Shown: one piece after another, positions 451 through 62,979 of the stretch | Layout: every line of letters begins with the position of its first letter | How positions within the stretch are numbered: position 1 is the first letter of the stretch | Assembly: GCA_021736205.1 (NCBI GenBank) | Contig: JAIPGF010000003.1 | Coordinates: 7,772-71,771 of the forward strand | Length of the DNA stretch: 64,000 nucleotides | Reading direction: 5' to 3' | Source: Candidatus Izemoplasma sp. | GTDB lineage: Bacteria; Bacillota_I; Bacilli_A; Izemoplasmatales; Izemoplasmataceae | Notes under the pieces: generated by a model | What the model saw: the letters and a program-made list of their open reading frames with translations, nothing else | Told to the model about the DNA's origin: nothing | Databases searched by the model: none | Program-made: the position numbers and the translations under genes

Positions 451-1479
451 TTATTTGTCATTTGGCGTATATTTTTTATAATCAATCCAAATGTATTTAT
501 CATCCTCTAAATCACTCATAATATCGCTTAGTTTTTCTCCAGTCACTAAGGCATTTGTAAGCTCATTAATTGCTAATGCCATTGATTTTGAATCATTTAA
601 GACTGTCCCTGAGAGATACCCTTGATCAATTAACTCTAAGGCAATTGGTAGCCCATCAATCCCTACTACTGGCATCCAAGTTTCTGTGTCTCTATCTATC
701 ACACCATTATCATTCTCATCAACAAAATACCCTTCTTCTTTTAAGACTTCAATAGCGCCAATGGCCATCGCATCATTATTTGAAATGACTAATTCTATTG
801 TATTACCAAATTCAACTAATAAATCTGTCATCTTTTCTTTTGCTATCTCTTGTGAAAAATAGGCTTCTTCAATAATTAGTATGTCTATATGGAATCCGCG
901 GTCAGTTAATTCTTGAACAACTCTTTCCGTTCTTATTTCTGCATCTTGGTGACCAGGTTCTCCTTTTAAAATAACACATTGGATATTATTATCATTGTTT
1001 TTATCTAGTTCATTTAAATAATAAGAATTTCCTCCGAATAAATCAATAATAATATCTGCTTGAAAAATAGCTGATTGTTCTGGTTTAGCGCCAACATAAA
1101 ATAGTTGATCGTAAGAATACATATCTTCTTTCAGTGGTTCTCTATTAATAAAAATAATAGGCACATCTTTTTCTTTTGCTTTTTCAATTATTGGATAAAC
1201 ACCTAGACGATCTACAGGATTAACAATAATAACACGTGGGTTATCCAAAAAGACATCATTTATGATATCGTTTTGAATGATTTGTGAGTTTTTTGAATCA
1301 TATGATTCAAAACGATATGAATTATAATTTTTATTATCATAAATTAGCTCTTCAAATTGCTGCATATAAAGATCATCGTAGTCGTAAATAATAAGTGGAA
1401 CTTCGACTTCTTTTGTTCTGCAACCTGTTAGAAATAACCCAAGTGATATAAATAGAAACGCTATAATTAACTTTTTCAT
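451..1479 (-). CDS. periplasmic sugar-binding-protein-fold lipoprotein, probable ligand-sensing partner of the adjacent kinase
   Basis: 342 aa ORF with a lipobox (LTGC). It has a type-1 periplasmic binding protein pattern (VIIVNPVD, DVPIIFINRE, ISNNDAMAIGA). It lies 4 nt downstream of the kinase gene. Confidence 0.7.
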   Translation of the reverse strand: MKKLIIAFLFISLGLFLTGCRTKEVEVPLIIYDYDDLYMQQFEELIYDNKNYNSYRFESYDSKNSQIIQNDIINDVFLDNPRVIIVNPVDRLGVYPIIEKAKEKDVPIIFINREPLKEDMYSYDQLFYVGAKPEQSAIFQADIIIDLFGGNSYYLNELDKNNDNNIQCVILKGEPGHQDAEIRTERVVQELTDRGFHIDILIIEEAYFSQEIAKEKMTDLLVEFGNTIELVISNNDAMAIGAIEVLKEEGYFVDENDNGVIDRDTETWMPVVGIDGLPIALELIDQGYLSGTVLNDSKSMALAINELTNALVTGEKLSDIMSDLEDDKYIWIDYKKYTPNDK

Positions 1480-1483
1480 TGTA

Positions 1484-3199
1484 TCATCCTTTTTCTAGTG
1501 GGAAGTATATCTGAATCGTTGTACTTTCATCTAAAACACTCTTTATATGTATTCCTGAGCGTTCTCCATAATATAACTTTAGACGCTGTACAACATTTTT
1601 AAGACCAATACTTTCATGGTTATCATTCTGTATCTTTTCATAAATCTCTTCTATTTGTTCATCAGTTAATCCATACCCATTATTCATAACCTCGAAATAG
1701 ATAAACCCATCTTTTTTATATACAGAAATATCAATTTGACCTTTAAACTCTGTGCTAATTCCATGATGTATGGCATTTTCGATAATAGGCTGCAATATAA
1801 GTTTAACAACTTTTTTATCTTTGATTGATTCTTCAACGTTTACAGTATATTCAAATTTATTAGAATATCTAATTGTTTGAATTTTTAAGTAATATTTGGC
1901 ATGTTGAATTTCTTTATCAATCGTAATAATATCTTTTCCTCTTGAAATACTTATTCTGAAGAAGCGACTAAGTGCCATAACCATTTCTATAACATGTTCG
2001 TTATCATTTTGTTCTGAAAGCCAAATAATAGAATCAAGTGTGTTATATAAAAAGTGTGGATTAATTTGTGTTTGAAGCGCAATCAATTCTGTTTTACGTT
2101 TTTCATTTTGTTCATCAACAAGTTGATTCATTAATCCTCTAATTTCTTTAATCATCTCATTATAAGCCGCAGCTAAGATTACAACTTCTTTTTGTCCACG
2201 TACTTCAACTTCTTTATATAGATGATCACTATGTTGTATATCAGTCATGTGCTCTTTTAATTTATTTAAGGGTCTTGTTATTTGCTTTGTTAATATAGAA
2301 GCTATTAATGTTGAAATGAAAATTGTTACAACCAAGACGGTTGATAAAAGAAAAAATATCGATATTTTTGAACTTCCAATCAAATCAACATTAATAAACG
2401 TCGCGATACGCCACCTTGTTCCATGTATCGTATTAATACTCACATACATATCTGTACCATCAATTGATACAAAATCGCCACCGATAATGATTTTTCTAGC
2501 TATAACGTTACTATCACAGGTAGAATTTTGACATTTGTCTGTCGAAGAATAAATCAATTGATTTTTATCGCTAATAATAATTAGATGTCCATTTTCACCT
2601 AAATTGGTTTGTTTAGCAAGGGTGTCTATTTGTTCAGTACTTAATTCAATTAATAAAACACCTGAGTATTTTTGTGAATATTCATAATAATCAATTTGTT
2701 TAGATACACTAATTACTTGTTCATTACTATCAACAAAGACATCTTGTGGATGGGGTGTTGAAAAGAAATACACTTCTTCGTTATCAATTGCCCGATCAAA
2801 CCAATAACGTTCTGTTAAATCCTCATAAGCTGAATAGTTTAGTTTACTTGTTGCAGCAATTGTACCATCCATCTTTACTAAACTAATCGTAATTGTGTCA
2901 CTATTTAATGTTGCAACATTACTATATATTTCATGTAAACTTTCTTGATTCGCAATTTCAACTTCTTTGGTTTTTAATTCAATGTAATTCGCAAGATCTC
3001 TAACATCATTAAAATAGTTTTCATAATTTAAAATGATTTGTTTATTAATCTCTTTAGAGTTTGCTTCTACAATTTCATCAACTGTATTGTATGTATTTAT
3101 ATAGATAAACGCGCTCGCGAACAACAATGCGGTAGACAACAATAAAATTACAGCATAATTAAGCTTTCTGTCAATGCTTAATTGTTTAAACCATTTCAT
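1484..3199 (-). CDS. sensor histidine kinase, YesM/LytS-type (two TM segments, extracytoplasmic domain, HAMP, His_kinase, HATPase_c)
   Basis: 571 aa. The INPHFLYNTLDSI motif marks the PF06580-type phosphoacceptor region. The C-terminal ATPase part contains ENAIHHG and GYGL. It overlaps the regulator gene by 14 nt. Confidence 0.85.
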   Translation of the reverse strand: MKWFKQLSIDRKLNYAVILLLSTALLFASAFIYINTYNTVDEIVEANSKEINKQIILNYENYFNDVRDLANYIELKTKEVEIANQESLHEIYSNVATLNSDTITISLVKMDGTIAATSKLNYSAYEDLTERYWFDRAIDNEEVYFFSTPHPQDVFVDSNEQVISVSKQIDYYEYSQKYSGVLLIELSTEQIDTLAKQTNLGENGHLIIISDKNQLIYSSTDKCQNSTCDSNVIARKIIIGGDFVSIDGTDMYVSINTIHGTRWRIATFINVDLIGSSKISIFFLLSTVLVVTIFISTLIASILTKQITRPLNKLKEHMTDIQHSDHLYKEVEVRGQKEVVILAAAYNEMIKEIRGLMNQLVDEQNEKRKTELIALQTQINPHFLYNTLDSIIWLSEQNDNEHVIEMVMALSRFFRISISRGKDIITIDKEIQHAKYYLKIQTIRYSNKFEYTVNVEESIKDKKVVKLILQPIIENAIHHGISTEFKGQIDISVYKKDGFIYFEVMNNGYGLTDEQIEEIYEKIQNDNHESIGLKNVVQRLKLYYGERSGIHIKSVLDESTTIQIYFPLEKG

Positions 3200-4775
3200 G
3201 ATTACGATACTCCCTTGGAGATGAACCAGTTACTTTTTTAAAACTATGACTAAAATAATAAACATCTTTATACCCTACCTTAACTGAGATATCGACAATC
3301 TTTAAGTCGGATGTTTTAAGAAGTTCTTTCGCCTTATCCATTCGCATTTTTATTAAGTACTTACTAAACGTGTATCCACTATGCTTTTTAAACAACATGC
3401 TTAAATATGATATTGAAACATTTAATTCCTGGCTTAATTGTTCAAGCGACATAGATGGATCTGGGTAATTTTGCTTAATGTAATCTATCGCTCTTTGTGT
3501 TAATTCCTCACTATGTGATAGTTGCTTACGTGTATCCTGTTCACGAATCTTTAAAATGATATCAAGGAAATAATCAATCATTTCTTCATAACGCGTATAA
3601 ATGTTTAACTCGCTTACTAAATCAATATTTGTTATTTCATCCAACGGAATTTTTGCTTGTTCAGCTAAATTAATTAATAAACTTGATAATTCAATTATGA
3701 CATATTCTCTAATATATTTACTTTTATCTTGTATAATACGTTCTTTTAACTCATTTGTTTTCTCTTTAATCATTTCTTCTTTACCATACTGAATCAAACG
3801 ATCAAATGAATTAAAATCACTTATAGAAATAAATGATTGTTTAATCTCAGCGTTATACAGTTCTTCAGCGAAAACAATGTTGTTATAATTAAATAAATTC
3901 GCATAACTTAACGCTCTTTTAGCTTGATTGTAGGATTTGGGAAATGCTTCAAAATTGGAATACTTATTTGACACACCTATAAGTAGTCCTGATTCTAAAA
4001 ATTCTTTAGAGGATTGTGATAATTCAAATAATAATTCATCAGCTTTGTTTTTTTCATATGTTTCAAGAGAAAAAATAAACACAATCCCGTCTGCTACTAG
4101 TAACGTATGTTTAAAGGGGATTGATTTGAACACCTTTTTAAACATTTCATTTGTATTAATTTTAATTCTCTCTATAGATTTTAAAGAAGTCTTTTTTGAA
4201 TTAACACTGACTAAAGCAGTAGTAAAATTTGATTGATTTGATACATCAATCCCATATAAACTTAACTTTTTAATCCCTTCTTCACTAATTTTATCTAAAT
4301 TAATCAAAGAACTTAAATAACTATCCCCAATAATTGGTAGTAGTTCTTCATATTTCTCTTTCATAACCATAATGTCTTTCATTTGTTTATAATCACTATC
4401 AAGATTCTTTTTTAAATCTTTTAAAAACATATTAATTTCTTTTGAGCTGATGGGTTTCATGATATAATTATCAACTTGTAGAGAAACAGCTTCTTTTGCA
4501 TAATTAAATTCATCATACCCCGTAATAAATGCCACCTTGATCATCGGATAATCACGACGAATAATCCTTGTTAACTCAATCCCATCAACAAAAGGCATTT
4601 TAATGTCTGTTAAAACAACATCGACATCTTTCTCTTCAATAAGTTCTAATGCATCATGACCATTCCCTGCAGATCCAACTATATTAAATCCTATATCCGA
4701 TGATATTTTTGAAGCAATTCTACCTCTAATTTCATCTTCATCATCAACTAATATAATGTTATATGTTTTTGCCAT
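3186..4775 (-). CDS. response regulator, CheY receiver + AraC-type HTH (YesN-like)
   Basis: 529 aa. The N-terminus ILVDDEDEIR...DVVLTDIKMP is a receiver domain. The C-terminal part (SISYLSMLFKK...GYKDVYYFSHSFKK) is an AraC HTH. Confidence 0.9.
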   Translation of the reverse strand: MAKTYNIILVDDEDEIRGRIASKISSDIGFNIVGSAGNGHDALELIEEKDVDVVLTDIKMPFVDGIELTRIIRRDYPMIKVAFITGYDEFNYAKEAVSLQVDNYIMKPISSKEINMFLKDLKKNLDSDYKQMKDIMVMKEKYEELLPIIGDSYLSSLINLDKISEEGIKKLSLYGIDVSNQSNFTTALVSVNSKKTSLKSIERIKINTNEMFKKVFKSIPFKHTLLVADGIVFIFSLETYEKNKADELLFELSQSSKEFLESGLLIGVSNKYSNFEAFPKSYNQAKRALSYANLFNYNNIVFAEELYNAEIKQSFISISDFNSFDRLIQYGKEEMIKEKTNELKERIIQDKSKYIREYVIIELSSLLINLAEQAKIPLDEITNIDLVSELNIYTRYEEMIDYFLDIILKIREQDTRKQLSHSEELTQRAIDYIKQNYPDPSMSLEQLSQELNVSISYLSMLFKKHSGYTFSKYLIKMRMDKAKELLKTSDLKIVDISVKVGYKDVYYFSHSFKKVTGSSPREYRNHEMV

Positions 4776-4835
4776 GTTCTCACCACCTAATATAAATTAA
4801 TTATACAACAAATTATTAATTATTAAATACAATAT

Positions 4836-4896: not shown

Positions 4897-5700
4897 TTAT
4901 GGCTGTAATGCACCAACTAAAACCAACCATGCTAAGACTGATTTAGCTACCAAACTTAAAATAATGTATCCGCGTTCTCCGTATAAATAATTTTTCCATT
5001 TTCCTTTTTTTAAATATTGGAAAATCATATTTACAGGAAATGAGTTAAATGCAATGAAGTACGTAATAACAATCGCCCAGACAAACCAAGGTGTCTCAGC
5101 GGTTGCTTCTGGTGAAGCGCCTGTCATATACAAAATAATAGCTATCCATGGTGCCAAGCCTGCAATGCTTCCCCAAATAAATGGTCCCCAATTAACATCT
5201 TCTTTTTCTTTACCTGAGTTTAATTGTTCCATCACAAGACCAAATAAATTCATTGATGCATTAACAAGAAAAATCAAAATAAGTGATGCGATATCCCATA
5301 CACCAAATAAATATGCTATAAGGACTATCATAATTGATGAACTAAGTGCATACTCAAACCATCTAAATCTATTAATACCTTTTTCTAGATCTTTATTATA
5401 GATAGTATTAAATTTCTCTGGCAGTGAGATTAAAGCATGTGCTATTGCAGAAATTAATAGAAACATAGCAACTAAAACAAAAAATGGTAACGTAAATGCC
5501 TCGGTTCGTGCAAAAGCTAAGTATCCTTGTCCAGGTCCTGTTTCAACAAATGTTAAATAATGCTGATAAAGTTGCATTTTAAAATCTCCAAGATCACTAA
5601 GAACTAATCCAAGAATAATCATAAGAATACCTTGAACTAAATGAAATGCACCCATAATGATATTGAATTTTCTTAAACTTTTTAAAGATGTTTTTTCCAT
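4897..5700 (-). CDS. heliorhodopsin (7-TM retinal protein with inverted topology)
   Basis: 267 aa. It aligns by eye with heliorhodopsin 48C12 along its whole length: FNIIMGAFHLVQ, FRWFEYALSSSIMIVLIA (counterion Glu), VNASMNLFG, and GERGYIILSLVAKSVLAW (Schiff-base Lys in SLVAKS). Confidence 0.85.
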   Translation of the reverse strand: MEKTSLKSLRKFNIIMGAFHLVQGILMIILGLVLSDLGDFKMQLYQHYLTFVETGPGQGYLAFARTEAFTLPFFVLVAMFLLISAIAHALISLPEKFNTIYNKDLEKGINRFRWFEYALSSSIMIVLIAYLFGVWDIASLILIFLVNASMNLFGLVMEQLNSGKEKEDVNWGPFIWGSIAGLAPWIAIILYMTGASPEATAETPWFVWAIVITYFIAFNSFPVNMIFQYLKKGKWKNYLYGERGYIILSLVAKSVLAWLVLVGALQP

Positions 5701-5731
5701 ACATATCGCTTCCTTTCATTTTTATAATTAT

Positions 5732-5740
5732 ATTATATCA
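5732..5740 (-). promoter_or_regulatory. extended -10 promoter element (TGaTATAAT) for the heliorhodopsin gene
   Basis: The minus strand reads TGATATAAT about 32 nt upstream of the ATG at 5700, with the RBS-like AAAGGAAG in between. No good -35 element is present. Confidence 0.4.
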
Positions 5741-5891
5741 TTTTTTTTAATAAAAATAACATCTTACACAAAAATATAATTAATAAAAATCTTTCGAAAC
5801 TTTTATTATTACCATTAAACAAACCAATTAGAGTACTTTAAGAGTTAAAGGAATATCCCTTATATCAGCAATATCCCAGCAAGTAAAAAAA

Positions 5892-5920
5892 TTGACCACT
5901 TTTGTTATTTTTTTTATAAT
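5892..5920 (+). promoter_or_regulatory. near-consensus sigma-A promoter (TTGACC-17-TATAAT), upstream tandem promoter
   Basis: TTGACC at 5892-5897, an exact 17-nt spacer, and TATAAT at 5915-5920. Confidence 0.45.
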
Positions 5921-6031
5921 CTTTATATTTAAGTAATAATGATTACTATTATAAGGGAAATAAATATTGTTTGATACGTCTCTTGTCAATACTCAAATAA
6001 ATTTTTTATTGACTTTTTTTATTTAAAGTCC

Positions 6032-6060
6032 TTGACATTTATATTATTCTACCCTATAAA
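6032..6060 (+). promoter_or_regulatory. sigma-A promoter (TTGACA-17-TATAAA) for the riboswitch-led fibre-subunit operon
   Basis: TTGACA at 6032-6037, a 17-nt spacer, and TATAAA at 6055-6060. It sits about 20 nt upstream of the aptamer-like element. Confidence 0.55.
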
Positions 6061-6079
6061 CATAATGAACAAAAAATTA

Positions 6080-6158
6080 AAGAAGGAAAAGGCATTCTTG
6101 AAGAAATTCAAGCGATCGCAAAACTATAGGGCCTGTAAAATGGTAGCCAGTTACCACG
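6080..6158 (+). promoter_or_regulatory. c-di-GMP-I (GEMM-I) riboswitch-like aptamer, copy 1
   Basis: A GNRA-capped hairpin TTGAA-GAAA-TTCAA (6098-6111) is followed by GATCGCAAAACTATAGGGCC, a short hairpin, and TAGCCAGTTACC (6144-6155). This matches the remembered GEMM-I core (GACGCAAAGC..GGG ... AGC.G.UUACC of Vc2). It shares CTATAGGG and TAGCCAGTTACC exactly with copy 2 on the other strand. Confidence 0.65.
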
Positions 6159-6183
6159 TATTTTTATGGTAGCTGGTTTTTTT
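6147..6183 (+). terminator. intrinsic terminator forming the expression platform of riboswitch copy 1
   Basis: A 10-bp stem CCAGTTACCA (6147-6156) / TGGTAGCTGG (6167-6176) contains one G-U pair. It has a 10-nt loop and then TTTTTTT (6177-6183). The 5-prime arm is the conserved 3-prime strand of the aptamer. Confidence 0.7.
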
Positions 6184-6224
6184 ATTGCTATATACAGACT
6201 TTAATTATGATTGGAAGTGATCAG

Positions 6225-6827
6225 ATGATTACACGGAGATTTGTTCAGATCAGTACAGTAGCTATATTATTAATAGGGTTTATCTTTACATCAGGTTCTG
6301 CGTTTGCTTATTGGAGAGAAGTTAATGTTTCCAGAGATGTAGAAATCGTAAAGATAGGAGAACCTATTGAAATAATAGTTGACGATATCTATTCTGAAAG
6401 TAATCTTCATTTAGTCCCAGAAGGATACATTATAAGTGTTCAAGATGTTGAAGAAGTCCAACTTGAATATGAAGTAAGTGTTTCTCGAGAACTAATAAAT
6501 ACTGTTAATTTAAATATACGAGCTGTTGATATTTTAATTGATGGTTCTGATACTTATAGCCATCTTGTAGATATATCAATTATGGGTTTAGGTAGCGAAG
6601 CTCAGTTAGATCTCTTTAATGAAGCTTTAACAATTTATGTTACAGTAAGACTAGAAGAACCATTTGATGAAGAAGAAGTTGTAGGGAAAAACTTAGATGA
6701 ATCCCTTGTGAATGTGGAAGACTCTGAGTTAGCTTATCAAACAATAACAGGTAAGACCATAACATTCACACTAAATTTTGAATTAGAAGTAAAAGAAATT
6801 TCTAGCAACGACAATTCACAGAATTGA
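6225..6827 (+). CDS. secreted protein with a SipW-cognate-type signal peptide (paralogue A of the fibre-subunit family)
   Basis: The ORF track starts at 6207. The ATG at 6225 (MITRRF...) follows GGAAGTGA and is the likelier start. The hydrophobic N-terminus ends in GSAFAYWRE. The C-terminus ITGKTITFTLNFELEV matches the ends of the 6873 and 9627 proteins. Confidence 0.7.
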   Translation: MITRRFVQISTVAILLIGFIFTSGSAFAYWREVNVSRDVEIVKIGEPIEIIVDDIYSESNLHLVPEGYIISVQDVEEVQLEYEVSVSRELINTVNLNIRAVDILIDGSDTYSHLVDISIMGLGSEAQLDLFNEALTIYVTVRLEEPFDEEEVVGKNLDESLVNVEDSELAYQTITGKTITFTLNFELEVKEISSNDNSQN

Positions 6828-6872
6828 TAAAATATAAAAAATAAATTAAAAAAATTAAAAGGAGAATAAAAA

Positions 6873-7403
6873 ATGAAAACAAAAAAATTAGGAATAGCGT
6901 TATTAGTAATGTTAGCGCTAGTAGTTACAACCGGAACATTTGCTTATTGGGCAAGTAGTGTAACAGACGGAACTAATACTGTTGGTGGGACTGTTACTGT
7001 TGGTACTGGTGAACAAGTTACAACTACTGTAACGGTAACTGCTCAATCTGATTTAAACGGCAATTTGGTACCTGTTGGATTTGAAGATGCAACAAAAGTT
7101 AATAATCTTGACTTAACGTTCCCAGTTACTTGGACTGCCGATCAAGCAGGTGCAGATGGAATCGTCGGAAATTTAAATGTAACAATTTCCAATTATGCTA
7201 TTGGTACACTTACTGGGACTGCTGTAACAGATATGTTTACAGTAACAATAACATCAGGTTCCGGAGCAATCACTGAAGGTGTATCACAAAATGTTATTAT
7301 CAATGTTGAATTTACAAATGAACCAACTGATTCAACTACATACAGCCAAGTTGCTGGAAACGACTTAACATTTGATGTTACATTTACAGCATCAGCCAAC
7401 TAA
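6873..7403 (+). CDS. secreted Thr/Val/Gly-rich protein with a SipW-cognate-type signal peptide, candidate major TasA-like fibre subunit (paralogue B)
   Basis: Strong RBS AAAGGAGA. The signal peptide ends in TGTFAYWASSV. The body is T/V/G-rich (TVGGTVTVGTGEQVTTTVTVTAQ) and has no Cys. The C-terminal motif is EPTDSTTYSQVAGNDLTFDVTFTASAN. Confidence 0.75.
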   Translation: MKTKKLGIALLVMLALVVTTGTFAYWASSVTDGTNTVGGTVTVGTGEQVTTTVTVTAQSDLNGNLVPVGFEDATKVNNLDLTFPVTWTADQAGADGIVGNLNVTISNYAIGTLTGTAVTDMFTVTITSGSGAITEGVSQNVIINVEFTNEPTDSTTYSQVAGNDLTFDVTFTASAN

Positions 7404-7442
7404 TAATTAGAAAATAAACTTAATATTTAAGGTGGTGATAAA

Positions 7443-7754
7443 ATGAGTATTAAAAAGAAATTACTGTTAGTATCTACTTTGCTACTGACACTTTTTGGTG
7501 CTACGTTTGTCACTGATAATTCTTATGCGTATTGGGCTTCAAGTATTTCATCTACTCAACAAACTACTACTGGTACTGTAACAGTTAGCTCATGGAATTT
7601 TATTCCAATTTGGGACAGTACAACAACCTATTATTCAGGTGATGTTGTTGAGTATAACGGATCTTATTATGAAGCTAAAAAGACAAATACAAATGAAGAA
7701 CCAGAAATTGCTAAAGGTTGGAGAAGTAACTGGACTCAAACTACAGTTAACTAA
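7443..7754 (+). CDS. small secreted protein: SipW-cognate-type signal peptide fused to a CBM5/12 (chitin-binding type) module
   Basis: RBS AAGGTGGTG. The signal peptide ends in NSYAYWASSIS. The tail WDSTTTYYSGDVVEYNGSYYEAKKTNTNEEPEIAKGWRSNW fits the W..Y..GD.V.Y.G..Y.A...P...W pattern of CBM5/12. Confidence 0.7.
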   Translation: MSIKKKLLLVSTLLLTLFGATFVTDNSYAYWASSISSTQQTTTGTVTVSSWNFIPIWDSTTTYYSGDVVEYNGSYYEAKKTNTNEEPEIAKGWRSNWTQTTVN

Positions 7755-7764
7755 ATACACAAAT

Positions 7765-7803
7765 AAATAGGCACATATAAATCCGTGCCTATTTATTTTT
7801 TTT
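7765..7803 (+). terminator. rho-independent terminator ending the fibre-subunit transcript
   Basis: Perfect 10-bp stem AAATAGGCAC (7765-7774) / GTGCCTATTT (7785-7794), then a T-run to 7803. Confidence 0.85.
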
Positions 7804-7804
7804 A

Positions 7805-7813
7805 TGCTATAAT
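7805..7813 (+). promoter_or_regulatory. extended -10 element (TGcTATAAT) for the signal-peptidase genes
   Basis: TGCTATAAT lies immediately after the terminator and 16 nt before the AGGAGG at 7830-7835. Confidence 0.4.
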
Positions 7814-7841
7814 ATCCTTAAAGAAACTTAGGAGGTCCTTA

Positions 7842-8393
7842 ATGATGAAAAATTCACAAATAAAAGAAAATATAACTATATTTGGATCAGCTATTTTAAT
7901 CGCAATATTGATCATATATATTCTTTTTCAATTGTTTATGCCTAAACTTACTATAAAAGTCTTTGGTGCTAAGCCCTATAACGTTATTACTGAAAGTATG
8001 GAACCTGTATTAGATGTAAATGATATCGTTGTTGTGAAACGCTTTAAAATAGATAACGCAGAAGAAGGCGATATTATAACTTTTAATGCAGATATTAATT
8101 ATGATGGCACAAAAGAAATTGTAACCCATTATATTTATTCTATAACTGGAACTGATGAAAATAGAGTTATTAGGACGAATAGACATTATGACAACATGAA
8201 CAATGCCGTTCCTGACACATGGTTCCTTAATGAGGACGATGTAATTGGTACTTACTGGTTTCATATTCCAAAATTAGGTTATGTTAGTGAGTTTTTAAAA
8301 AGTCCTTTTGGTATTGCTGCAATGATAGTCAATATAGGCGTTATTGTTGGTGTCGTATATCTAATTAAACAAGGGAATGAAGTTAAGGAATAG
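7842..8393 (+). CDS. sipW: signal peptidase I, SipW / ER-archaeal type (paralogue 1)
   Basis: The ORF-track start at 7785 lies inside the terminator. ATGATG at 7842 follows AGGAGG. Motifs match B. subtilis SipW: VITESMEP (nucleophile Ser), GDIITF, VTHYIY (His), GTYWFHIPKLGYV, and a C-terminal TM. Confidence 0.8.
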   Translation: MMKNSQIKENITIFGSAILIAILIIYILFQLFMPKLTIKVFGAKPYNVITESMEPVLDVNDIVVVKRFKIDNAEEGDIITFNADINYDGTKEIVTHYIYSITGTDENRVIRTNRHYDNMNNAVPDTWFLNEDDVIGTYWFHIPKLGYVSEFLKSPFGIAAMIVNIGVIVGVVYLIKQGNEVKE

Positions 8394-8402
8394 GTTTTTA
8401 AA

Positions 8403-8981
8403 ATGTCTAAAAATAAAAATAATATCAAGCAAAAACTTAAATTATTATACTTAAAAATAAAAAAGACCAAAACTACCCATTTTATATTTTTAGGTATTTT
8501 AGTACTCTCAGTCGTAAATATTTCTATTATGAGCTTATTTTTTTATGATAACGATTATAATTATAAAATAATGAACATATCTTATATAAGCGCCATCACA
8601 CCTGAACAAGATGTGAATGAAACATTGTATACCAACGTTATTAAAATCAAGGAATTCAACTTAAATAACGCAACTATTGGTGATTTAGTCATAATCTATG
8701 ATGATTTTAGTACCAATGAATACTGGGTAGAGAAAATCATCGATATAAATGAAACAACCAAAGAAATAACAGTCACTTATGATGAAGTTTCAAACAACAA
8801 CATTTCTTATAACAATATATATGGAACATACATTAAGAAAGCAAATATCTTTGGAACAATTTATCACACAGCTATGTTTACTAGAGGATATATCTTACTT
8901 GTGTTTAGTCACATTTTTATTCTAGCGGCTTATTATACTTATTTTATCCTCCATGTAAAGGAACCAAAAAAGCGAATTTGA
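8403..8981 (+). CDS. SipW-fold paralogue lacking the catalytic residues (predicted pseudo-peptidase)
   Basis: It has the same architecture as its neighbours: N-terminal TM, GDLVIIYDD, IYGTYIKKANIFGTIY, C-terminal TM. SAITPE replaces S(D/E)SMEP, and EYWVEKII replaces VTHY. Confidence 0.6.
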   Translation: MSKNKNNIKQKLKLLYLKIKKTKTTHFIFLGILVLSVVNISIMSLFFYDNDYNYKIMNISYISAITPEQDVNETLYTNVIKIKEFNLNNATIGDLVIIYDDFSTNEYWVEKIIDINETTKEITVTYDEVSNNNISYNNIYGTYIKKANIFGTIYHTAMFTRGYILLVFSHIFILAAYYTYFILHVKEPKKRI

Positions 8982-8990
8982 GGTGTCTAG

Positions 8991-9557
8991 ATGAAAAAAC
9001 ACATTGGTAAGTTCTTCATATATTTAATTTACACACTATTAATTAGTTATATTGTCATTACAGTGTTTTTTCCAAATAAAAGTACAGATATATTAGGCTT
9101 TCGTACATTCGTTGTTATATCAGATAGCATGGAGCCTAAAATAAATGTGTATGATATGGTTGTTATTAAAAAGGTCGATAAAGAAGACATACAAGTATCT
9201 GATATCATTACGTTTAAAGTCTATATTCCAGAAGTTGATTCAAAAAGTTATGTAACGCACTATGTTGACGAAATAATTATTAATTCTGAGAATGAGACAA
9301 TCTACAAAACACAGGGTGAATCGACTGCCGAAAATCCTGATGTTTGGACTGATGCAGATGGCAATGTTATAGATATCAGCTACAATGATGTCGAAGGAGT
9401 TTATCTTTTTAAGATTCCTAAAATTGGTCGGTTAATATATCTGTTAAGGGATCCTATCTTTGTCGGATTACTAATAGTAAATGGTTTCGTCATTTACTTT
9501 GTGTACAAATATATTAAAAAGTTACTATTTGATGCTAAAAATGAGAAAAAGGACTAG
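8991..9557 (+). CDS. sipW: signal peptidase I, SipW / ER-archaeal type (paralogue 3)
   Basis: RBS GAGGTG. Motifs are VVISDSMEP, SDIITF, YVTHYVDE, KTQGEST, GVYLFKIPKIGRL and a C-terminal TM. Confidence 0.8.
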   Translation: MKKHIGKFFIYLIYTLLISYIVITVFFPNKSTDILGFRTFVVISDSMEPKINVYDMVVIKKVDKEDIQVSDIITFKVYIPEVDSKSYVTHYVDEIIINSENETIYKTQGESTAENPDVWTDADGNVIDISYNDVEGVYLFKIPKIGRLIYLLRDPIFVGLLIVNGFVIYFVYKYIKKLLFDAKNEKKD

Positions 9558-9626: not shown

Positions 9627-10133
9627 TTAATTTGCATAAAATGATACATTAAACATCAGTTGTCCACCAGCCAGTTGTTGGTACAACTCGTGGGTGCTTG
9701 GCTCGTTCATGGAAATACTTAATGAAACAATCACACGGATTGCTGATTCTTTACCCTCAAAAAGATGCTCTGAATAATCTAATGATTCTACTGTTTCTAT
9801 GTCGATATGGAAATTGAAAATAGCTTCAAGATTAGCTTCTGTTACAGTTGAATTAGAAAATACTAAATCAATTATTTCAGCATCCAACACCAAACCATCT
9901 TTAACAATCAGTTCATATTCATACTGTATAGTATGTACATCATTCACTGTACGAACTTGATTAGAAGGGATCAACGTGCTCTTGCTATCACTAATTAATG
10001 TTTCATTGATAATGTAGCTATCAGATGTTTCATTGATATAAACATTATCATCTTTTACAACACTTGCATAAATAGATGTTGTTGTTGAAAAAATTAAAAA
10101 AATCAAAACTAGACTTTTTAAGATGTTTTTCAT
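9627..10133 (-). CDS. secreted protein, paralogue D of the fibre-subunit family
   Basis: The ORF-track start at 10160 is unlikely. The ATG at 10133 (MKNILKSLVLIF...) follows AGGAG (10142-10146). LIPSNQVRTVNDVHTIQYEYELIV and EPSTHELYQQLAGGQLMFNVSFYAN parallel LVPEGYIISVQDVEEVQLEYEVSV and ITGKTITFTLNFELEV of paralogue A. Confidence 0.7.
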   Translation of the reverse strand: MKNILKSLVLIFLIFSTTTSIYASVVKDDNVYINETSDSYIINETLISDSKSTLIPSNQVRTVNDVHTIQYEYELIVKDGLVLDAEIIDLVFSNSTVTEANLEAIFNFHIDIETVESLDYSEHLFEGKESAIRVIVSLSISMNEPSTHELYQQLAGGQLMFNVSFYAN

Positions 10134-10160
10134 CTTAACCACTCCTATGGGGGTTAACAT

Positions 10161-10245
10161 CAGGTAACTGGCTATCTCGGTGAGATCCTTCTCAGTGAGA
10201 CCCTATAGCTTTCCGTCACAAGATTGCTCCTGCTTTGGCTTTATC
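10161..10245 (-). promoter_or_regulatory. c-di-GMP-I (GEMM-I) riboswitch-like aptamer, copy 2
   Basis: The minus strand reads GCCAAA-GCAGGA-GCAA-TCTTGT-GACGGAAAGCTATAGGGTCTCAC..GAGATAGCCAGTTACC. That is a GNRA (GCAA) tetraloop hairpin, a GACG.AAAGC core, a long P3-like hairpin and a 3-prime AGCCAGTTACC. The element order matches the Vc2 c-di-GMP-I aptamer as I remember it. Confidence 0.7.
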
Positions 10246-10297
10246 AAATATCAACACCATAGAAATGAAATCTCTATAGTTTTGATTTGATACTTTA

Positions 10298-10325
10298 ATT
10301 ATACTACATCTATGGTATTTGTCAA
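10298..10325 (-). promoter_or_regulatory. consensus sigma-A promoter (TTGACA-16-TATAAT) for riboswitch copy 2
   Basis: On the minus strand, TTGACA is at 10325-10320, followed by a 16-nt spacer and TATAAT at 10303-10298. Confidence 0.6.
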
Positions 10326-10364: not shown

Positions 10365-11603
10365 CTATCTAATTATATCCAAAAAGACATCTACAATAGC
10401 CGGATCAAATTGTTTTCCACGATTATCAATTAATTCTTGAATTGTTTTTTCTTCAGATAATGCTTTTCGATAAATACGATCATTAGACATTGCATCATAC
10501 GCATCTACAACAGCTAAAATTCTAGATAATAATGGAGTTTCTTCCCCTTTTAGTTCTTTTGGATACCCTGTCCCATCCCACCGTTCATGGTGTGTTAATA
10601 TATAATAAGAAATAGCTTCTAATTGGGGCACACCGCTTGCGATTTTATATCCAATAATAGGATGCTGTTTCATTTTATTATATTCTACTTTAGTCAGTTT
10701 TCCAGGCTTTTTTAAAATACTATCATCAATACCAATTTTACCTATATCATGTAAGATAGCAAATAATTTTAAATCATTGATGTCATTTGTTTTTAAATCT
10801 AATTTATACCCTAATTGTGCGCAAAGTTTTTCCATTCGTGATGCGTGTTGCTCAGTTTCATCACTACGCTCAAACAAGGATGTTTTTAAAGATTTAACAA
10901 GTGAACTACTCGCACTTTTAACTAATAACAATTTATTTTTAAGCATACTATCTTCAGCATATGACAGCGTAGAATAAATATTTTTAGAATCAGACGTCGT
11001 ACTAAATCCCATAGCTACAGTCAGTTCTATATCTTTGAATATATTATAATCTAAATTTTTTCTAATTTTTTCAATCATATTTTCGATATGTTTTTTCTTA
11101 GTATGATAAAAAATGACACAAAACTCATCGCCGCCAACGCGCGCAATGAAAGTCTCATCAGATAAGCTATCTTTTAAGATTTCTGCATAACTTGAAAGTA
11201 GTTTGTCCCCATATTCTGAGGAATAAAACTCATTTATTAATTTTAACCCATTAATATCAGTAATAAGAATAGATGCTTCAATCTCCTGTGAATAAATACG
11301 GTTTAATTCTTGATCAAAACTACTTCTATTATGTACCCCTGTAAGTAAATCAAAGTTTTCTAACTGCACTATATTATCTTCAGCTTTTTTTATAAGAGAA
11401 ACTTCTCTTTTTACCAAATAATAGATAATCAAAGCAGAAATCACGATAAAAAATAACCCTTTTATTGTTGATGTATATCTATATTGATAAACATCATCGA
11501 TCACAACCAATAAGATATAATCTGATAAAAAAATCCAAGATGCGCTAAATAATAGGTAAATGATTGAAACTCTAAAGGCAGATGTAATATTTTTATTTTC
11601 CAT
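10365..11603 (-). CDS. membrane-anchored GGDEF diguanylate cyclase fused to an HD-GYP phosphodiesterase domain
   Basis: It has N-terminal TM helices and a literal GGDEF (ARVGGDEFCVIF). HD-GYP signatures are HDIGKIGI and HHERWDGTGYP. The ORF track starts at a GTG at 11612; the first ATG is at 11603. Confidence 0.9.
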   Translation of the reverse strand: MENKNITSAFRVSIIYLLFSASWIFLSDYILLVVIDDVYQYRYTSTIKGLFFIVISALIIYYLVKREVSLIKKAEDNIVQLENFDLLTGVHNRSSFDQELNRIYSQEIEASILITDINGLKLINEFYSSEYGDKLLSSYAEILKDSLSDETFIARVGGDEFCVIFYHTKKKHIENMIEKIRKNLDYNIFKDIELTVAMGFSTTSDSKNIYSTLSYAEDSMLKNKLLLVKSASSSLVKSLKTSLFERSDETEQHASRMEKLCAQLGYKLDLKTNDINDLKLFAILHDIGKIGIDDSILKKPGKLTKVEYNKMKQHPIIGYKIASGVPQLEAISYYILTHHERWDGTGYPKELKGEETPLLSRILAVVDAYDAMSNDRIYRKALSEEKTIQELIDNRGKQFDPAIVDVFLDIIR

Positions 11604-11960
11604 ATAAATCACTTAAGGGGTTTTAGATAACTACTACTCCCTTAACCTCCTATATATAATTATATCATTTAAATCACATATAAAAAGCAATATAAGTTTA
11701 CAGAAAACTTTTTTTATTGTTTTCTTTGTTAAATAAAAACAATACAGGTTGTTTAAAATCTGTATACTCTCTTATCGATGTAATTTTTATACTCATCTAT
11801 GAAATTTATAACTTTTTTTGATATATCTCTTATTTCTTATTATTTTTCCGAAAATACCATCATTAAGACAATTATATAATTAACTACAAATCATATAGAA
11901 AAAAATCCCAGAAACACCTACAACTTTTAGTAGATATGTTTTCTAGGATATGAATTTTAC

Positions 11961-61400: not shown

Positions 61401-62768
61401 TTAAACTAATCCAAGAGCAAATCCTAATATAAATAATGCAGCAAGTACATACATTACAACATTAACTTCTTTTGCTTTTCCTTGAGATACCATTACAATC
61501 GGATAGAAAACAAATCCAACAGCAATCCCAGTCGCAATACTAAATGTTAATACCATCATAATGATCGTTAAGAATGCTGGAATAACAATTGCTTTATCTG
61601 ACCAATCAATATCTTTTAATTGAGTAACCATTAATGTTCCTACCATCACGAGTGCCATTGCTGTTACTGGACTATAAGCAACACCGCCAATAATAACACC
61701 ATTAACAATACTCAGTAGTGGGAAAACAAACAATGAGAGAATAAATAATCCTCCAACAACTACACTAGATAATCCTGTTCTAGACCCTTGTTCAATTCCT
61801 GTTGCACTTTCAATGTAAGATGTAACATTTGAAGTACCTAATAATGCACCTGTCATCGTACCAACACTATCTACGATTAATGCTTTGTCAGATCCAATAA
61901 TTTCTCCATCTTCATCAATTAACCCAGCTTGCGTTCCTACAGCCATTAATGTTCCTGCTGTATCAAAGAAATCAACAAATAATAACGCAAATATAATTCC
62001 AAATGTTTCAGGATGTTGGAACAATTCTCCAAATCCACTAAATGCTGCAAAGAATGTTTTTCCTATATCTCCCCAAAAATCAATGCCAGACGCAGTATAC
62101 GAAGGCATTTGAGCAGTTAAACTTGGAAAAATAGTTCCCAGTAGTAATCCTACTATAGCTGTCACGAAAATAGATATAATTAAGGCAAATCTATTTCCTA
62201 GAGAATGTAGAATGACAACAAGTATGATTCCAAAAATGGCTAGCAATACAATTGGTTGTGTTAAATCACCAAGTGCAACAAATGTCGCTGGATCCGCTAC
62301 AACAATACCAGCATTTTTAAGACCGATAAAGGTAATAAAGAATCCAATCCCTGCTCCAACAGCATATTTTAATCCAACTGGAATTGCATTAATAATCCTT
62401 TTTCTTAATCCTGTTATTGAAATAACAAAGAATAAGAATCCAGAAATTAATACTGCTGCAAGTGCTGCTTGCCAAGATAGTCCTAATGTTAAAACTAAGA
62501 AGTAAGTGAAAAATGCGTTAAGACCCATTCCTGGTGCCAAAGCAACTGGTAAGTTTGCCAGTAACCCCATTAATATTGATGCGATTGCTGCAGCAACTGC
62601 AGTTGCAAAGAATACCCCACCGAGTGGTATACCTGCATCAGCAAGCATATATGAGTTAACGGGTAAAATGTATGCCATTGCTAAAAATGTTGTTAATCCA
62701 GCAACCAATTCTGTACTGATTGAAGAACCGCGTTCTTCAAGCTTGAAATAAGATTTAATAAATTCCAT
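61401..62768 (-). CDS. NCS2/AzgA-family purine (guanine/hypoxanthine/adenine) permease
   Basis: 455 aa. The N-terminus FKLEERGSSISTELVAGLTTFLAMAYILPVN is typical of PbuG/AzgA permeases. It lies behind a guanine riboswitch. Confidence 0.9.
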   Translation of the reverse strand: MEFIKSYFKLEERGSSISTELVAGLTTFLAMAYILPVNSYMLADAGIPLGGVFFATAVAAAIASILMGLLANLPVALAPGMGLNAFFTYFLVLTLGLSWQAALAAVLISGFLFFVISITGLRKRIINAIPVGLKYAVGAGIGFFITFIGLKNAGIVVADPATFVALGDLTQPIVLLAIFGIILVVILHSLGNRFALIISIFVTAIVGLLLGTIFPSLTAQMPSYTASGIDFWGDIGKTFFAAFSGFGELFQHPETFGIIFALLFVDFFDTAGTLMAVGTQAGLIDEDGEIIGSDKALIVDSVGTMTGALLGTSNVTSYIESATGIEQGSRTGLSSVVVGGLFILSLFVFPLLSIVNGVIIGGVAYSPVTAMALVMVGTLMVTQLKDIDWSDKAIVIPAFLTIIMMVLTFSIATGIAVGFVFYPIVMVSQGKAKEVNVVMYVLAALFILGFALGLV

Positions 62769-62821: not shown

Positions 62822-62847
62822 AAAAAAATAGAGAATTACCTCTGTTA
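62822..62847 (-). terminator. weak putative terminator (expression platform of the guanine riboswitch)
   Basis: The minus strand reads AACAGAG-GTAATT-CTCTATTTTTTT, a short AT-rich stem plus T7, directly after the P1 3-prime strand. Confidence 0.4.
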
Positions 62848-62849
62848 TT

Positions 62850-62919
62850 ATATCATAGTCCCAAATGTTACGGTCTGGGGTAGAGACAATCGAACCTTAT
62901 TTTCGATCATATATGATAT
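62850..62919 (-). promoter_or_regulatory. purine riboswitch, guanine-type (C at the specificity position)
   Basis: The minus strand reads ATATCATA-TAT-GATCGAA-AATAAGG-TTCGATT-GTCTCTAC-CCCAGA-CCGTAACA-TTTGGG-AC-TATGATAT. P1, P2 and P3 and the junctions match the B. subtilis xpt aptamer (UAUAAU..GUUUCUACC..CCGUAA..GACUAUG). The junction 3/1 reads AC, so it is guanine class. Confidence 0.85.
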
Positions 62920-62979
62920 CAACCAACTTCAATAGTATCAGAAATTATCCTAAAACACAATAAAATAAAAACACTTTCA

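Follow-up and report, generated by a model that had tools for sequence, protein, structure and literature searches.

The window, by which we mean the whole 64,000-nucleotide stretch of Candidatus Izemoplasma sp. DNA that was analysed, carries six consecutive plus-strand genes at 6225-9557 which are preceded by a structured leader at 6081-6183. Gene 1 (6225-6827) encodes a secreted protein of 200 aa that has the signal peptide ...SGSAFAYW and is predicted to fold as a beta-sandwich, and gene 2 (6873-7403) encodes a Thr-rich protein of 176 aa whose signal peptide (TGTFAYWASS) is of the SipW class, its homologues bearing the JGI label 'peptide with SipW-like signal peptide'. The AF2 models of both proteins had a pLDDT of 74, and that of gene 2 was also a beta-sandwich, with residues 21-49 after the signal peptide disordered. 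By sequence, the subunits had no match in the PDB, Pfam or NCBIfam, and none of 70 gene 1 homologues had a Pfam domain. Foldseek searches of the PDB with the models returned weak similarity to TasA, at rank 4 for gene 1 (5of1_B, E 1.3e-3, TMq 0.35) and as the best match for gene 2 (the TasA fibre 8aur_A, E 1.6e-3, TMq 0.38). The gene 2 product is the likely major subunit of the presumed fibre. Gene 3 (7443-7754) encodes a secreted protein of 103 aa (SYAYWASS) for which the CBM5/12 assignment is borderline, PF02839 scoring 26.1 bits against a cutoff of 26.2. Two signal peptidases follow, a SipW/archaeal-type signal peptidase I (gene 4, 7785-8393; TIGR02228, 74.0 bits) and a second SipW-type enzyme (gene 6, 8991-9557; 60.7 bits), both above the TIGR02228 cutoff of 51.85 and both far below the cutoff of the Bacillus SipW equivalog model; between them gene 5 (8403-8981) encodes an unknown membrane protein. 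Taken with the weak structural similarity of the modelled subunits, this arrangement is consistent with a TasA/SipW-type fibre system.

A convergent paralogue of the subunit genes lies on the minus strand at 9627-10133 and has its own riboswitch, a second c-di-GMP-I aptamer with a full-length P3 at 10160-10249 (-) that scored 56.4 bits against RF01051. Beyond it, 10365-11612 (-) encodes a protein with GGDEF and HD-GYP domains (PF00990, 82 bits; PF13487, 132 bits). The GGDEF and HHExxDGxGYP motifs are both visible in its translation, and the product is probably a c-di-GMP synthase and/or hydrolase.

Upstream of the six genes, a putative sigma-70-type promoter was read from the sequence at 6032-6060 on the plus strand, with a -35 element TTGACA (6032-6037), a 17-nt spacer and a -10 element TATAAA (6055-6060), which would place the transcription start at about 6067. 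A promoter scan gave an overlapping and weaker candidate (TTTATA-17-CATAAT, 6038-6066), and TTGACA/TATAAT promoters occur at a similar distance in orthologous leaders. The probable start codon of gene 1 is the ATG at 6225, which follows a Shine-Dalgarno sequence, GGAAGUG (6213-6219). Translation from it yields the 200-aa product that GenBank annotates and homologues match; this product is 100% identical to the GenBank entry (P0001) from a Candidatus Izimaplasma MAG. The original prediction had put the open reading frame 24 nt behind the leader's T-tract, a distance that holds for the first in-frame ATG, at 6207 (23-24 nt), and not for the likely start at 6225 (41 nt).

When all 4227 Rfam models were run against the whole window, RF01051 (c-di-GMP-I) matched 6081-6158 (+) over the full model length (1-87) with 42.8 bits, exceeding the gathering score of 35; the E value was 5e-5 in the search of the whole window and 2.8e-7 in a local one. 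A cmsearch with this model had been proposed as one check of what was then called a GEMM-I-like aptamer. The match is significant, and the earlier wording was an understatement: this is a bona fide RF01051 element in which the canonical contact bases are present. In the alignment to the model, G6091, A6120/A6121 and A6153, C6154 and C6155 correspond to G20, A47/A48 and A91, C92 and C93 in Vc2 numbering, and the ligand contacts in Vc2 are G20, A47 and C92 (PMC4744006, PMC6140456). C6117 and G6146 are the bases aligned with C44 and G83, an interhelical pair that has been described as universally conserved (PMC4744006), and are predicted to make the same contact. The first hairpin (6092-6119) is closed by the GC pairs G6092-C6119 and C6093-G6118, continues in a stem at 6097-6102/6107-6112, with both sets of pairs obtained from the model alignment and from folding, and ends in a GAAA tetraloop of the GNRA type (6103-6106). 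The second hairpin (P3, 6122-6152) is shortened, with pairs 6122-6125/6149-6152 and 6129-6133/6142-6148.

The aptamer also departs from the family consensus. Its internal loop reads GGCAUU...GAUCGC, with a 2-nt insertion relative to the consensus GGCAAA...GACGC. P3 lacks its distal half, the usual site of the tetraloop receptor, with 2 nt in place of 13 model positions, and the P3 loop CCUGUAAAAUGG retains receptor-like halves (CCU..A / AUGG). No convincing closing P1 helix was found by eye or by folding, as the flanks AGAAGGAAAA and CACGUAUU give at most 1-2 pairs; in relatives a P1 of about 5 bp (AAAUG/CAUUU) is possible. The Rfam model of RF01051 does not include P1, so its absence leaves the score unaffected.

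The 3' strand of the aptamer is also one arm of a terminator hairpin. CCAGTTACC lies at 6147-6155, within TAGCCAGTTACC (6144-6155), TGGTAGCTGG lies at 6167-6176 and seven T residues occupy 6177-6183, all as originally claimed. The 12-mer TAGCCAGTTACC, which had been described as common to both leaders, does recur in the second one, at 10174-10163 on the minus strand. The predicted 10-bp stem followed by T7 is likewise present, 6147-6156 pairing with 6176-6167 with one G.U pair included (U6151.G6172), and it grows to 12 bp through G6146.U6177 and A6145-U6178, with 5 G-C pairs and a 10-nt loop, CGUAUUUUUA (6157-6166). By pair list and energies, the 5' arm (6145-6156) contains the 3' strand of P3 (6147-6152), the equivalent of G83 (6146) and those of A91, C92 and C93 (6153-6155); in the folded leader the 3' arm (6167-6178) runs into the U7 tract (6177-6183). 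A stable stem-loop directly followed by U7 on the transcribed strand is the configuration of an intrinsic terminator. The hairpin alone had an MFE of -16.3 kcal/mol compared to -5.1 +/- 2.1 kcal/mol for dinucleotide shuffles (z = -5.4), and none of 200 shuffles was as good. A consensus terminator scan of 5600-6400 that allowed loops of only 3-8 nt listed nothing, because the 10-nt loop exceeds its 8-nt limit, and we rejected that absence since explicit folding yields the hairpin. Assignment of the hairpin to an upstream gene was also rejected: the heliorhodopsin gene (4897-5700) is on the other strand and divergent, and within the window no plus-strand gene ends upstream of 6081.

Because 6145-6156 serves both the aptamer and the terminator, the two folds exclude each other, which bears out the mutual exclusivity in the original prediction. 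On 6081-6183 the energies were -4.4 kcal/mol for P3, -16.2 for the terminator, -9.7 for the aptamer fold and -21.5 for the first hairpin combined with the terminator, which makes the terminator about 12 kcal/mol more stable than P3. In the full-leader ensemble the core pairs of the terminator had a probability of about 1.0 and the base of P3 a probability of about 0. With the shared strand free the MFE structure was the terminator, and with that strand withheld, as a mimic of the ligand-locked aptamer, folding of the leader gave no terminator. The balance between a weak P3 and a strong terminator suggests that termination is the default and that bound ligand should permit read-through.

The leader at 6081-6183 is probably a c-di-GMP-I riboswitch that turns on transcription of the six-gene fibre/signal-peptidase operon at 6225-9557. 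This reading is based on covariance-model membership, the strand common to both folds, the energies and a layout conserved among relatives, and from these we infer that the leader binds c-di-GMP and answers it with read-through from the putative promoter into the presumptive fibre genes. Transcription would begin near 6067, and the aptamer would emerge first. Without ligand, the weak P3 would be displaced as the emerging 6167-6178 pairs with 6145-6156, and the resulting 12-bp hairpin and U7 would release the polymerase 41 nt upstream of the start codon. With c-di-GMP bound through contacts with G6091, A6120 and C6154, P3 and C6154/C6155 would be held in the aptamer, nucleation of the terminator at its loop-proximal bases (6153-6156) would be blocked, no hairpin would form and the operon would be transcribed. 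The nucleation bases (A6156, C6155, C6154) include the ligand-pairing C92 equivalent and its neighbour, so the ligand would be expected to block the toehold directly. Since the 3' arm is complete only about 21 nt after the aptamer ends, the switch would have to be kinetic, acting co-transcriptionally within a ligand-binding window as short as about 21-30 nt of transcription.

The ON direction follows from this anatomy, in which the 5' arm of the terminator is itself an aptamer strand and no separate anti-terminator is needed. The opposite sign has precedent, as several c-di-GMP-I riboswitches are OFF switches and Vc2 is described as such (bioRxiv 10.1101/617340); in addition, the second riboswitch of the window looks translational. 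An OFF switch in which ligand favours termination would, however, need an anti-terminator that the aptamer disrupts, and leader folds offered no alternative partner for 6167-6178, whose partner strand lies within the aptamer. Control by hiding the ribosome-binding site fits the layout no better, in that the Shine-Dalgarno sequence (6213-6219) shows no complementarity to the aptamer and is situated 30 nt past the U-tract. We therefore regard either form of this alternative as very improbable and retain the ON reading.

Conservation of the layout was examined in 49 loci encoding gene 1 relatives, collected by a degenerate-pattern scan with one genome per species. All 49 belong to Izemoplasmatales, to Acholeplasmataceae (Mariniplasma, Peloplasma and others) or to unclassified Mycoplasmatota/Bacillota MAGs. 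The orthologous loci have in common an operon of two fibre-subunit-like proteins, a small CBM5/12 protein and two SipW-type signal peptidases, in the conserved order p1-p2-(p3)-SipW-p5-SipW. The same short-P3 GEMM-I aptamer was found 150-250 nt upstream in about 44 of the 49. An Rfam scan of 20 loci returned an RF01051 match at the expected spot wherever the upstream region was on the contig, with scores of 48-67 bits when extra copies are included. In an alignment of 42 distinct orthologous aptamers, the stem of the first hairpin showed compensatory changes at all six pairs, and P3 was conserved, its truncation being common to all of the approximately 44 orthologues.

Sharing of the strand was assessed in 45 leaders by computing the duplex energies of each, by shuffling and by testing arms against strands of the other type. 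The aptamer 3' strand paired at -10 kcal/mol or below with the 18 nt directly before the U-run in 28 of the 45, and in 26 at most 3 of 300 arm shuffles paired as well. The 3' arms of ACC-type aptamers (the window leader and the leader L009) read UGGUAG / UGGUGA and those of GUC-type aptamers UUGACAA, and each favoured its own type of aptamer strand by 4.6-8.6 kcal/mol in the ACC versus GUC cross-test. This covariation of the terminator amounts to few independent events because the aptamer constrains the 5' arm. In Acholeplasmataceae, most terminators are hairpins of 60 nt into which a stem-loop is inserted; the window leader and L009 have the most compact form. Nine leaders have a separate terminator (L001, L004, L005, L032, L036, L037, L040, L042 and L044), and in a further eight the overlap takes a bulged form. 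Many relatives have a second hairpin and U-run after the first terminator. For these relatives, and not for the window leader, to which the idea does not apply, we considered a 'relay' in which the freed 3' arm of terminator 1 acts as anti-terminator of the second hairpin; it was rejected, as the second hairpin still forms by MFE in most loci with the aptamer strand removed.

These comparisons bear on whether the aptamer of the window has decayed, leaving a constitutive attenuator with no useful ligand binding in which the hairpin merely damps the operon or other factors set read-through. Its score is the lowest of the orthologue set (42.8 versus 48-67 bits), with deviations at normally conserved positions; the altered internal loop, the absent P1 and the short P3 could all be signs of decay, and the energetic advantage of the terminator over P3 together with the brief time for ligand binding points the same way. 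Yet the short P3 is found in some 44 orthologues whose scores reach 67 bits, which makes it a trait of the lineage, L009 has the same compact terminator layout, and the bases for ligand and tertiary contacts are all intact in the window copy. The same locus also holds a gene for a c-di-GMP enzyme and a second, high-scoring riboswitch. Decay is thus an unlikely account of the leader, and a functional ON switch is the reading we prefer.

The ligand-contacting positions vary among the orthologues. The canonical G20/A47/C92 set is present in only 6 of the 42 aptamers, the window copy included; position 92 is U in 31, and position 20 is A in 5 (L032, L036, L037, L040 and L044), the signature of cGAMP (GEMM-Ib) riboswitches (PMC6140456). 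Specificity thus seems labile in the lineage, and the leader could work by the same ON mechanism with a ligand other or broader than c-di-GMP, for instance 3',3'-cGAMP or a different cyclic dinucleotide. For the window copy we think this improbable, since it has the G20/A47/C92 set, with which Vc2 binds c-di-GMP at a picomolar Kd, whereas its affinity for c-GAMP is only about 10 uM (PMC6140456). The canonical GGDEF motif of the neighbouring enzyme also argues for c-di-GMP as the ligand.

The logic of strand sharing is that of the pbuE (ydhL) adenine riboswitch of Bacillus subtilis, a kinetic ON switch whose terminator takes its 5' arm from the 3' part of the aptamer, although its aptamer family (purine) and its ligand differ. 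Within the aptamer family of the window, the closest parallel is Bc2 of Bacillus thuringiensis/cereus, in the 5' UTR of cap, the gene for a collagen adhesion protein. Bc2 is a c-di-GMP-I ON switch working by terminator/anti-terminator competition in vitro and in vivo and controlling an adhesin; its intrinsic terminator lies directly before the ORF, with termination by default and read-through with c-di-GMP (PMC4933901), a layout like the one that we read here from the sequence. The two differ in host, a Bacillus as opposed to a wall-less member of the Izemoplasmatales, and in cargo, an LPXTG-type adhesin, that is, a surface adhesion factor, as opposed to a TasA/SipW-like operon. The window leader is further distinguished from Bc2 by its truncated P3 and by a very compact 12-bp platform fused directly to P3/C92. 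Vc2, the structural reference from the Vibrio cholerae tfoY leader, has G20, A47, C92, the GAAA hairpin and C44-G83 (PMC4744006), all with equivalents in the window copy; unlike that copy, which has no distal P3 and no clear P1, Vc2 combines a defined P1 with a long P3 that carries a tetraloop receptor, and it is not a terminator-type ON switch. The GEMM-Ib (3',3'-cGAMP) riboswitches of Geobacter share the fold, and the G20 of the window copy indicates that this copy does not belong to that subtype.

The aptamer family and the switching design are therefore known, and what is new is the host clade and the cargo. Our literature search found no paper that treats Izemoplasma or Acholeplasma together with c-di-GMP or riboswitches and, judged by titles and abstracts, none linking a c-di-GMP riboswitch to sipW/tasA, PMC7395162 having the terms in its reference list only. 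The leader leaves the current understanding of riboswitch mechanisms unchanged. It adds a compact and cleanly interpretable predicted c-di-GMP ON switch in free-living wall-less Izemoplasmatales/Acholeplasmataceae, and it would link c-di-GMP to a conserved, uncharacterised TasA/SipW-like fibre operon, offering a handle on surface attachment or biofilm formation in sediment bacteria. The 45 leaders also constitute a set of natural variants (short and long terminator loops, C92/U92, G20/A20) in which the influence of affinity and folding time on the switching threshold could be studied.

For the second riboswitch (10160-10249, minus strand), folding of the leader gave no terminator, and the full leader folded with a long P1 extension that buries the Shine-Dalgarno sequence. 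These folds raise the speculative possibility of an OFF switch that sequesters the Shine-Dalgarno sequence, opposite in sign to the first riboswitch. We tentatively raise, with low confidence, a broader view in which the window leader is one of a lineage-specific short-P3 branch of GEMM-I in Izemoplasmatales and Acholeplasmataceae, its ligand-pairing nucleotide retuned (U92 in about three quarters, A20 in others and the canonical set in a minority), and in which this genome holds two riboswitches of opposite sign. If the branch has been retuned in this manner, species would differ in the cyclic-dinucleotide threshold or ligand to which this one fibre operon responds. If the signs are indeed opposite, with ON before p1-p2 and OFF before 9627-10133, c-di-GMP would swap TasA-like fibre subunits in a wall-less bacterium.

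Separately, among the orthologous loci, where the copy before p1 has U92, the riboswitch that precedes the p7 paralogue in the same genome retains C92.

The subunit paralogue at 9627-10133 is preceded by a second c-di-GMP-I riboswitch (aptamer 10160-10249 in a leader region of 10100-10300, minus strand, 56.4 bits). The leader of this riboswitch has no terminator. In the minimum free energy (MFE) fold of the full leader, P1 was lengthened considerably (UUUCUAUGGUGUUGAUAU paired with AUGUUAACC..CCAUAGGAG), which buried the Shine-Dalgarno sequence (SD), and the AUG was placed inside a separate hairpin. The SD was freed in an alternative fold with a 5' hairpin. The buried SD in the MFE fold, together with the alternative 5' hairpin that frees it, suggests that the second riboswitch may act at translation as an OFF switch, the reverse of the predicted ON switch before the fibre operon. 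The same three-part layout was also seen in the leaders of the p7-type paralogue at the orthologous loci L001 and L003-L009.

Directly upstream of the second riboswitch lies a gene for a composite GGDEF and HD-GYP protein with both motifs intact (10365-11612, minus strand); this protein likely supplies or removes the c-di-GMP available locally to both riboswitches.

We examined ligand-contact positions (Vc2 numbering) in the aptamers of the orthologous leaders L001-L049. The ligand-pairing C92 was replaced by U (GUC for ACC/GCC) in 31 of the 42 distinct aptamers, for example at L034 (5737-5811) and L012 (5795-5869), where numbering is that of each locus. These U92 aptamers nonetheless scored 56-67 bits on RF01051, and the partner of U92 in the terminator arm was A. 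In the genomes of L003 and L006-L008, C92 was kept by the p7-type riboswitch that accompanies the U92 copy. The U92 substitution could reflect a lower affinity threshold or changed specificity. At the position of another contact, G20, five Acholeplasmataceae orthologues carried A (L032 5807-5882, L036 5749-5823, L037 5813-5887, L040 5749-5823 and L044 5816-5890), a base diagnostic of GEMM-Ib riboswitches, which sense 3',3'-cGAMP or are bispecific. The A20 leaders precede the same fibre operon as the other orthologues and have a separate downstream terminator rather than one of the overlapping type. In L005, an Izemoplasmatales MAG with three GEMM-type aptamers inside 1.2 kb, the riboswitch before the p7 paralogue (4754-4829) matched not RF01051 but a variant family in Rfam, c-di-GMP-I-GGC (RF03167; 61.1 bits against a gathering score of 59).

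In many Acholeplasmataceae leaders, the terminator of the riboswitch is followed, ahead of the SD, by a second hairpin and U-run (AAGUCAACGU..ACGUUGAC-U5; for example at about 5949-5975 in L013, about 5882-5915 in L035 and about 5935-5960 in L049). The 5' arm of this hairpin is complementary to the 3' arm of the first terminator. A relay between the two structures is conceivable, yet was unsupported by MFE folds.

The third gene of the fibre operon (7443-7754, plus strand) encodes a secreted protein of 103 residues, the C-terminal 40 of which match the chitin/cellulose-binding CBM5/12 domain at the Pfam threshold (26.1 versus 26.2 bits). This product may serve the fibre as a substrate-binding tip or as an accessory subunit. 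P0110, a homologue of the putative major subunit, belongs to the transcriptome set of a eukaryote, Anaeramoba ignava; its true source is presumably a Mycoplasmatota-like bacterium, either an associate or a contaminant.

In this wall-less bacterium, the riboswitch operon and a heliorhodopsin gene (4897-5700, minus strand; PF18761, 309 bits; NF038020, 293 bits) are transcribed divergently. Genes for a histidine kinase with Cache and HAMP domains, a YesN-like response regulator (REC and AraC HTH, with a middle domain that weakly resembles GGDEF_2) and a sugar-binding periplasmic protein are located upstream of the heliorhodopsin gene (1484-4775 and 451-1479, minus strand) and look like an ordinary sugar-sensing module. 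Elsewhere in the window, a purine riboswitch (62836-62936, minus strand; RF00167, 66.9 bits) has a xanthine/uracil-family permease gene downstream (61401-62768, minus strand). In several relatives, the region a few kb downstream of the fibre operon repeatedly holds a THF riboswitch (L014 8388-8479, L045 7385-7476, L010 4529-4620, L028 7069-7160) and T-box leaders recur upstream of the operon (L034 238-425, L044 715-901, L019 548-730), a sign that this neighbourhood is conserved in Acholeplasmataceae.
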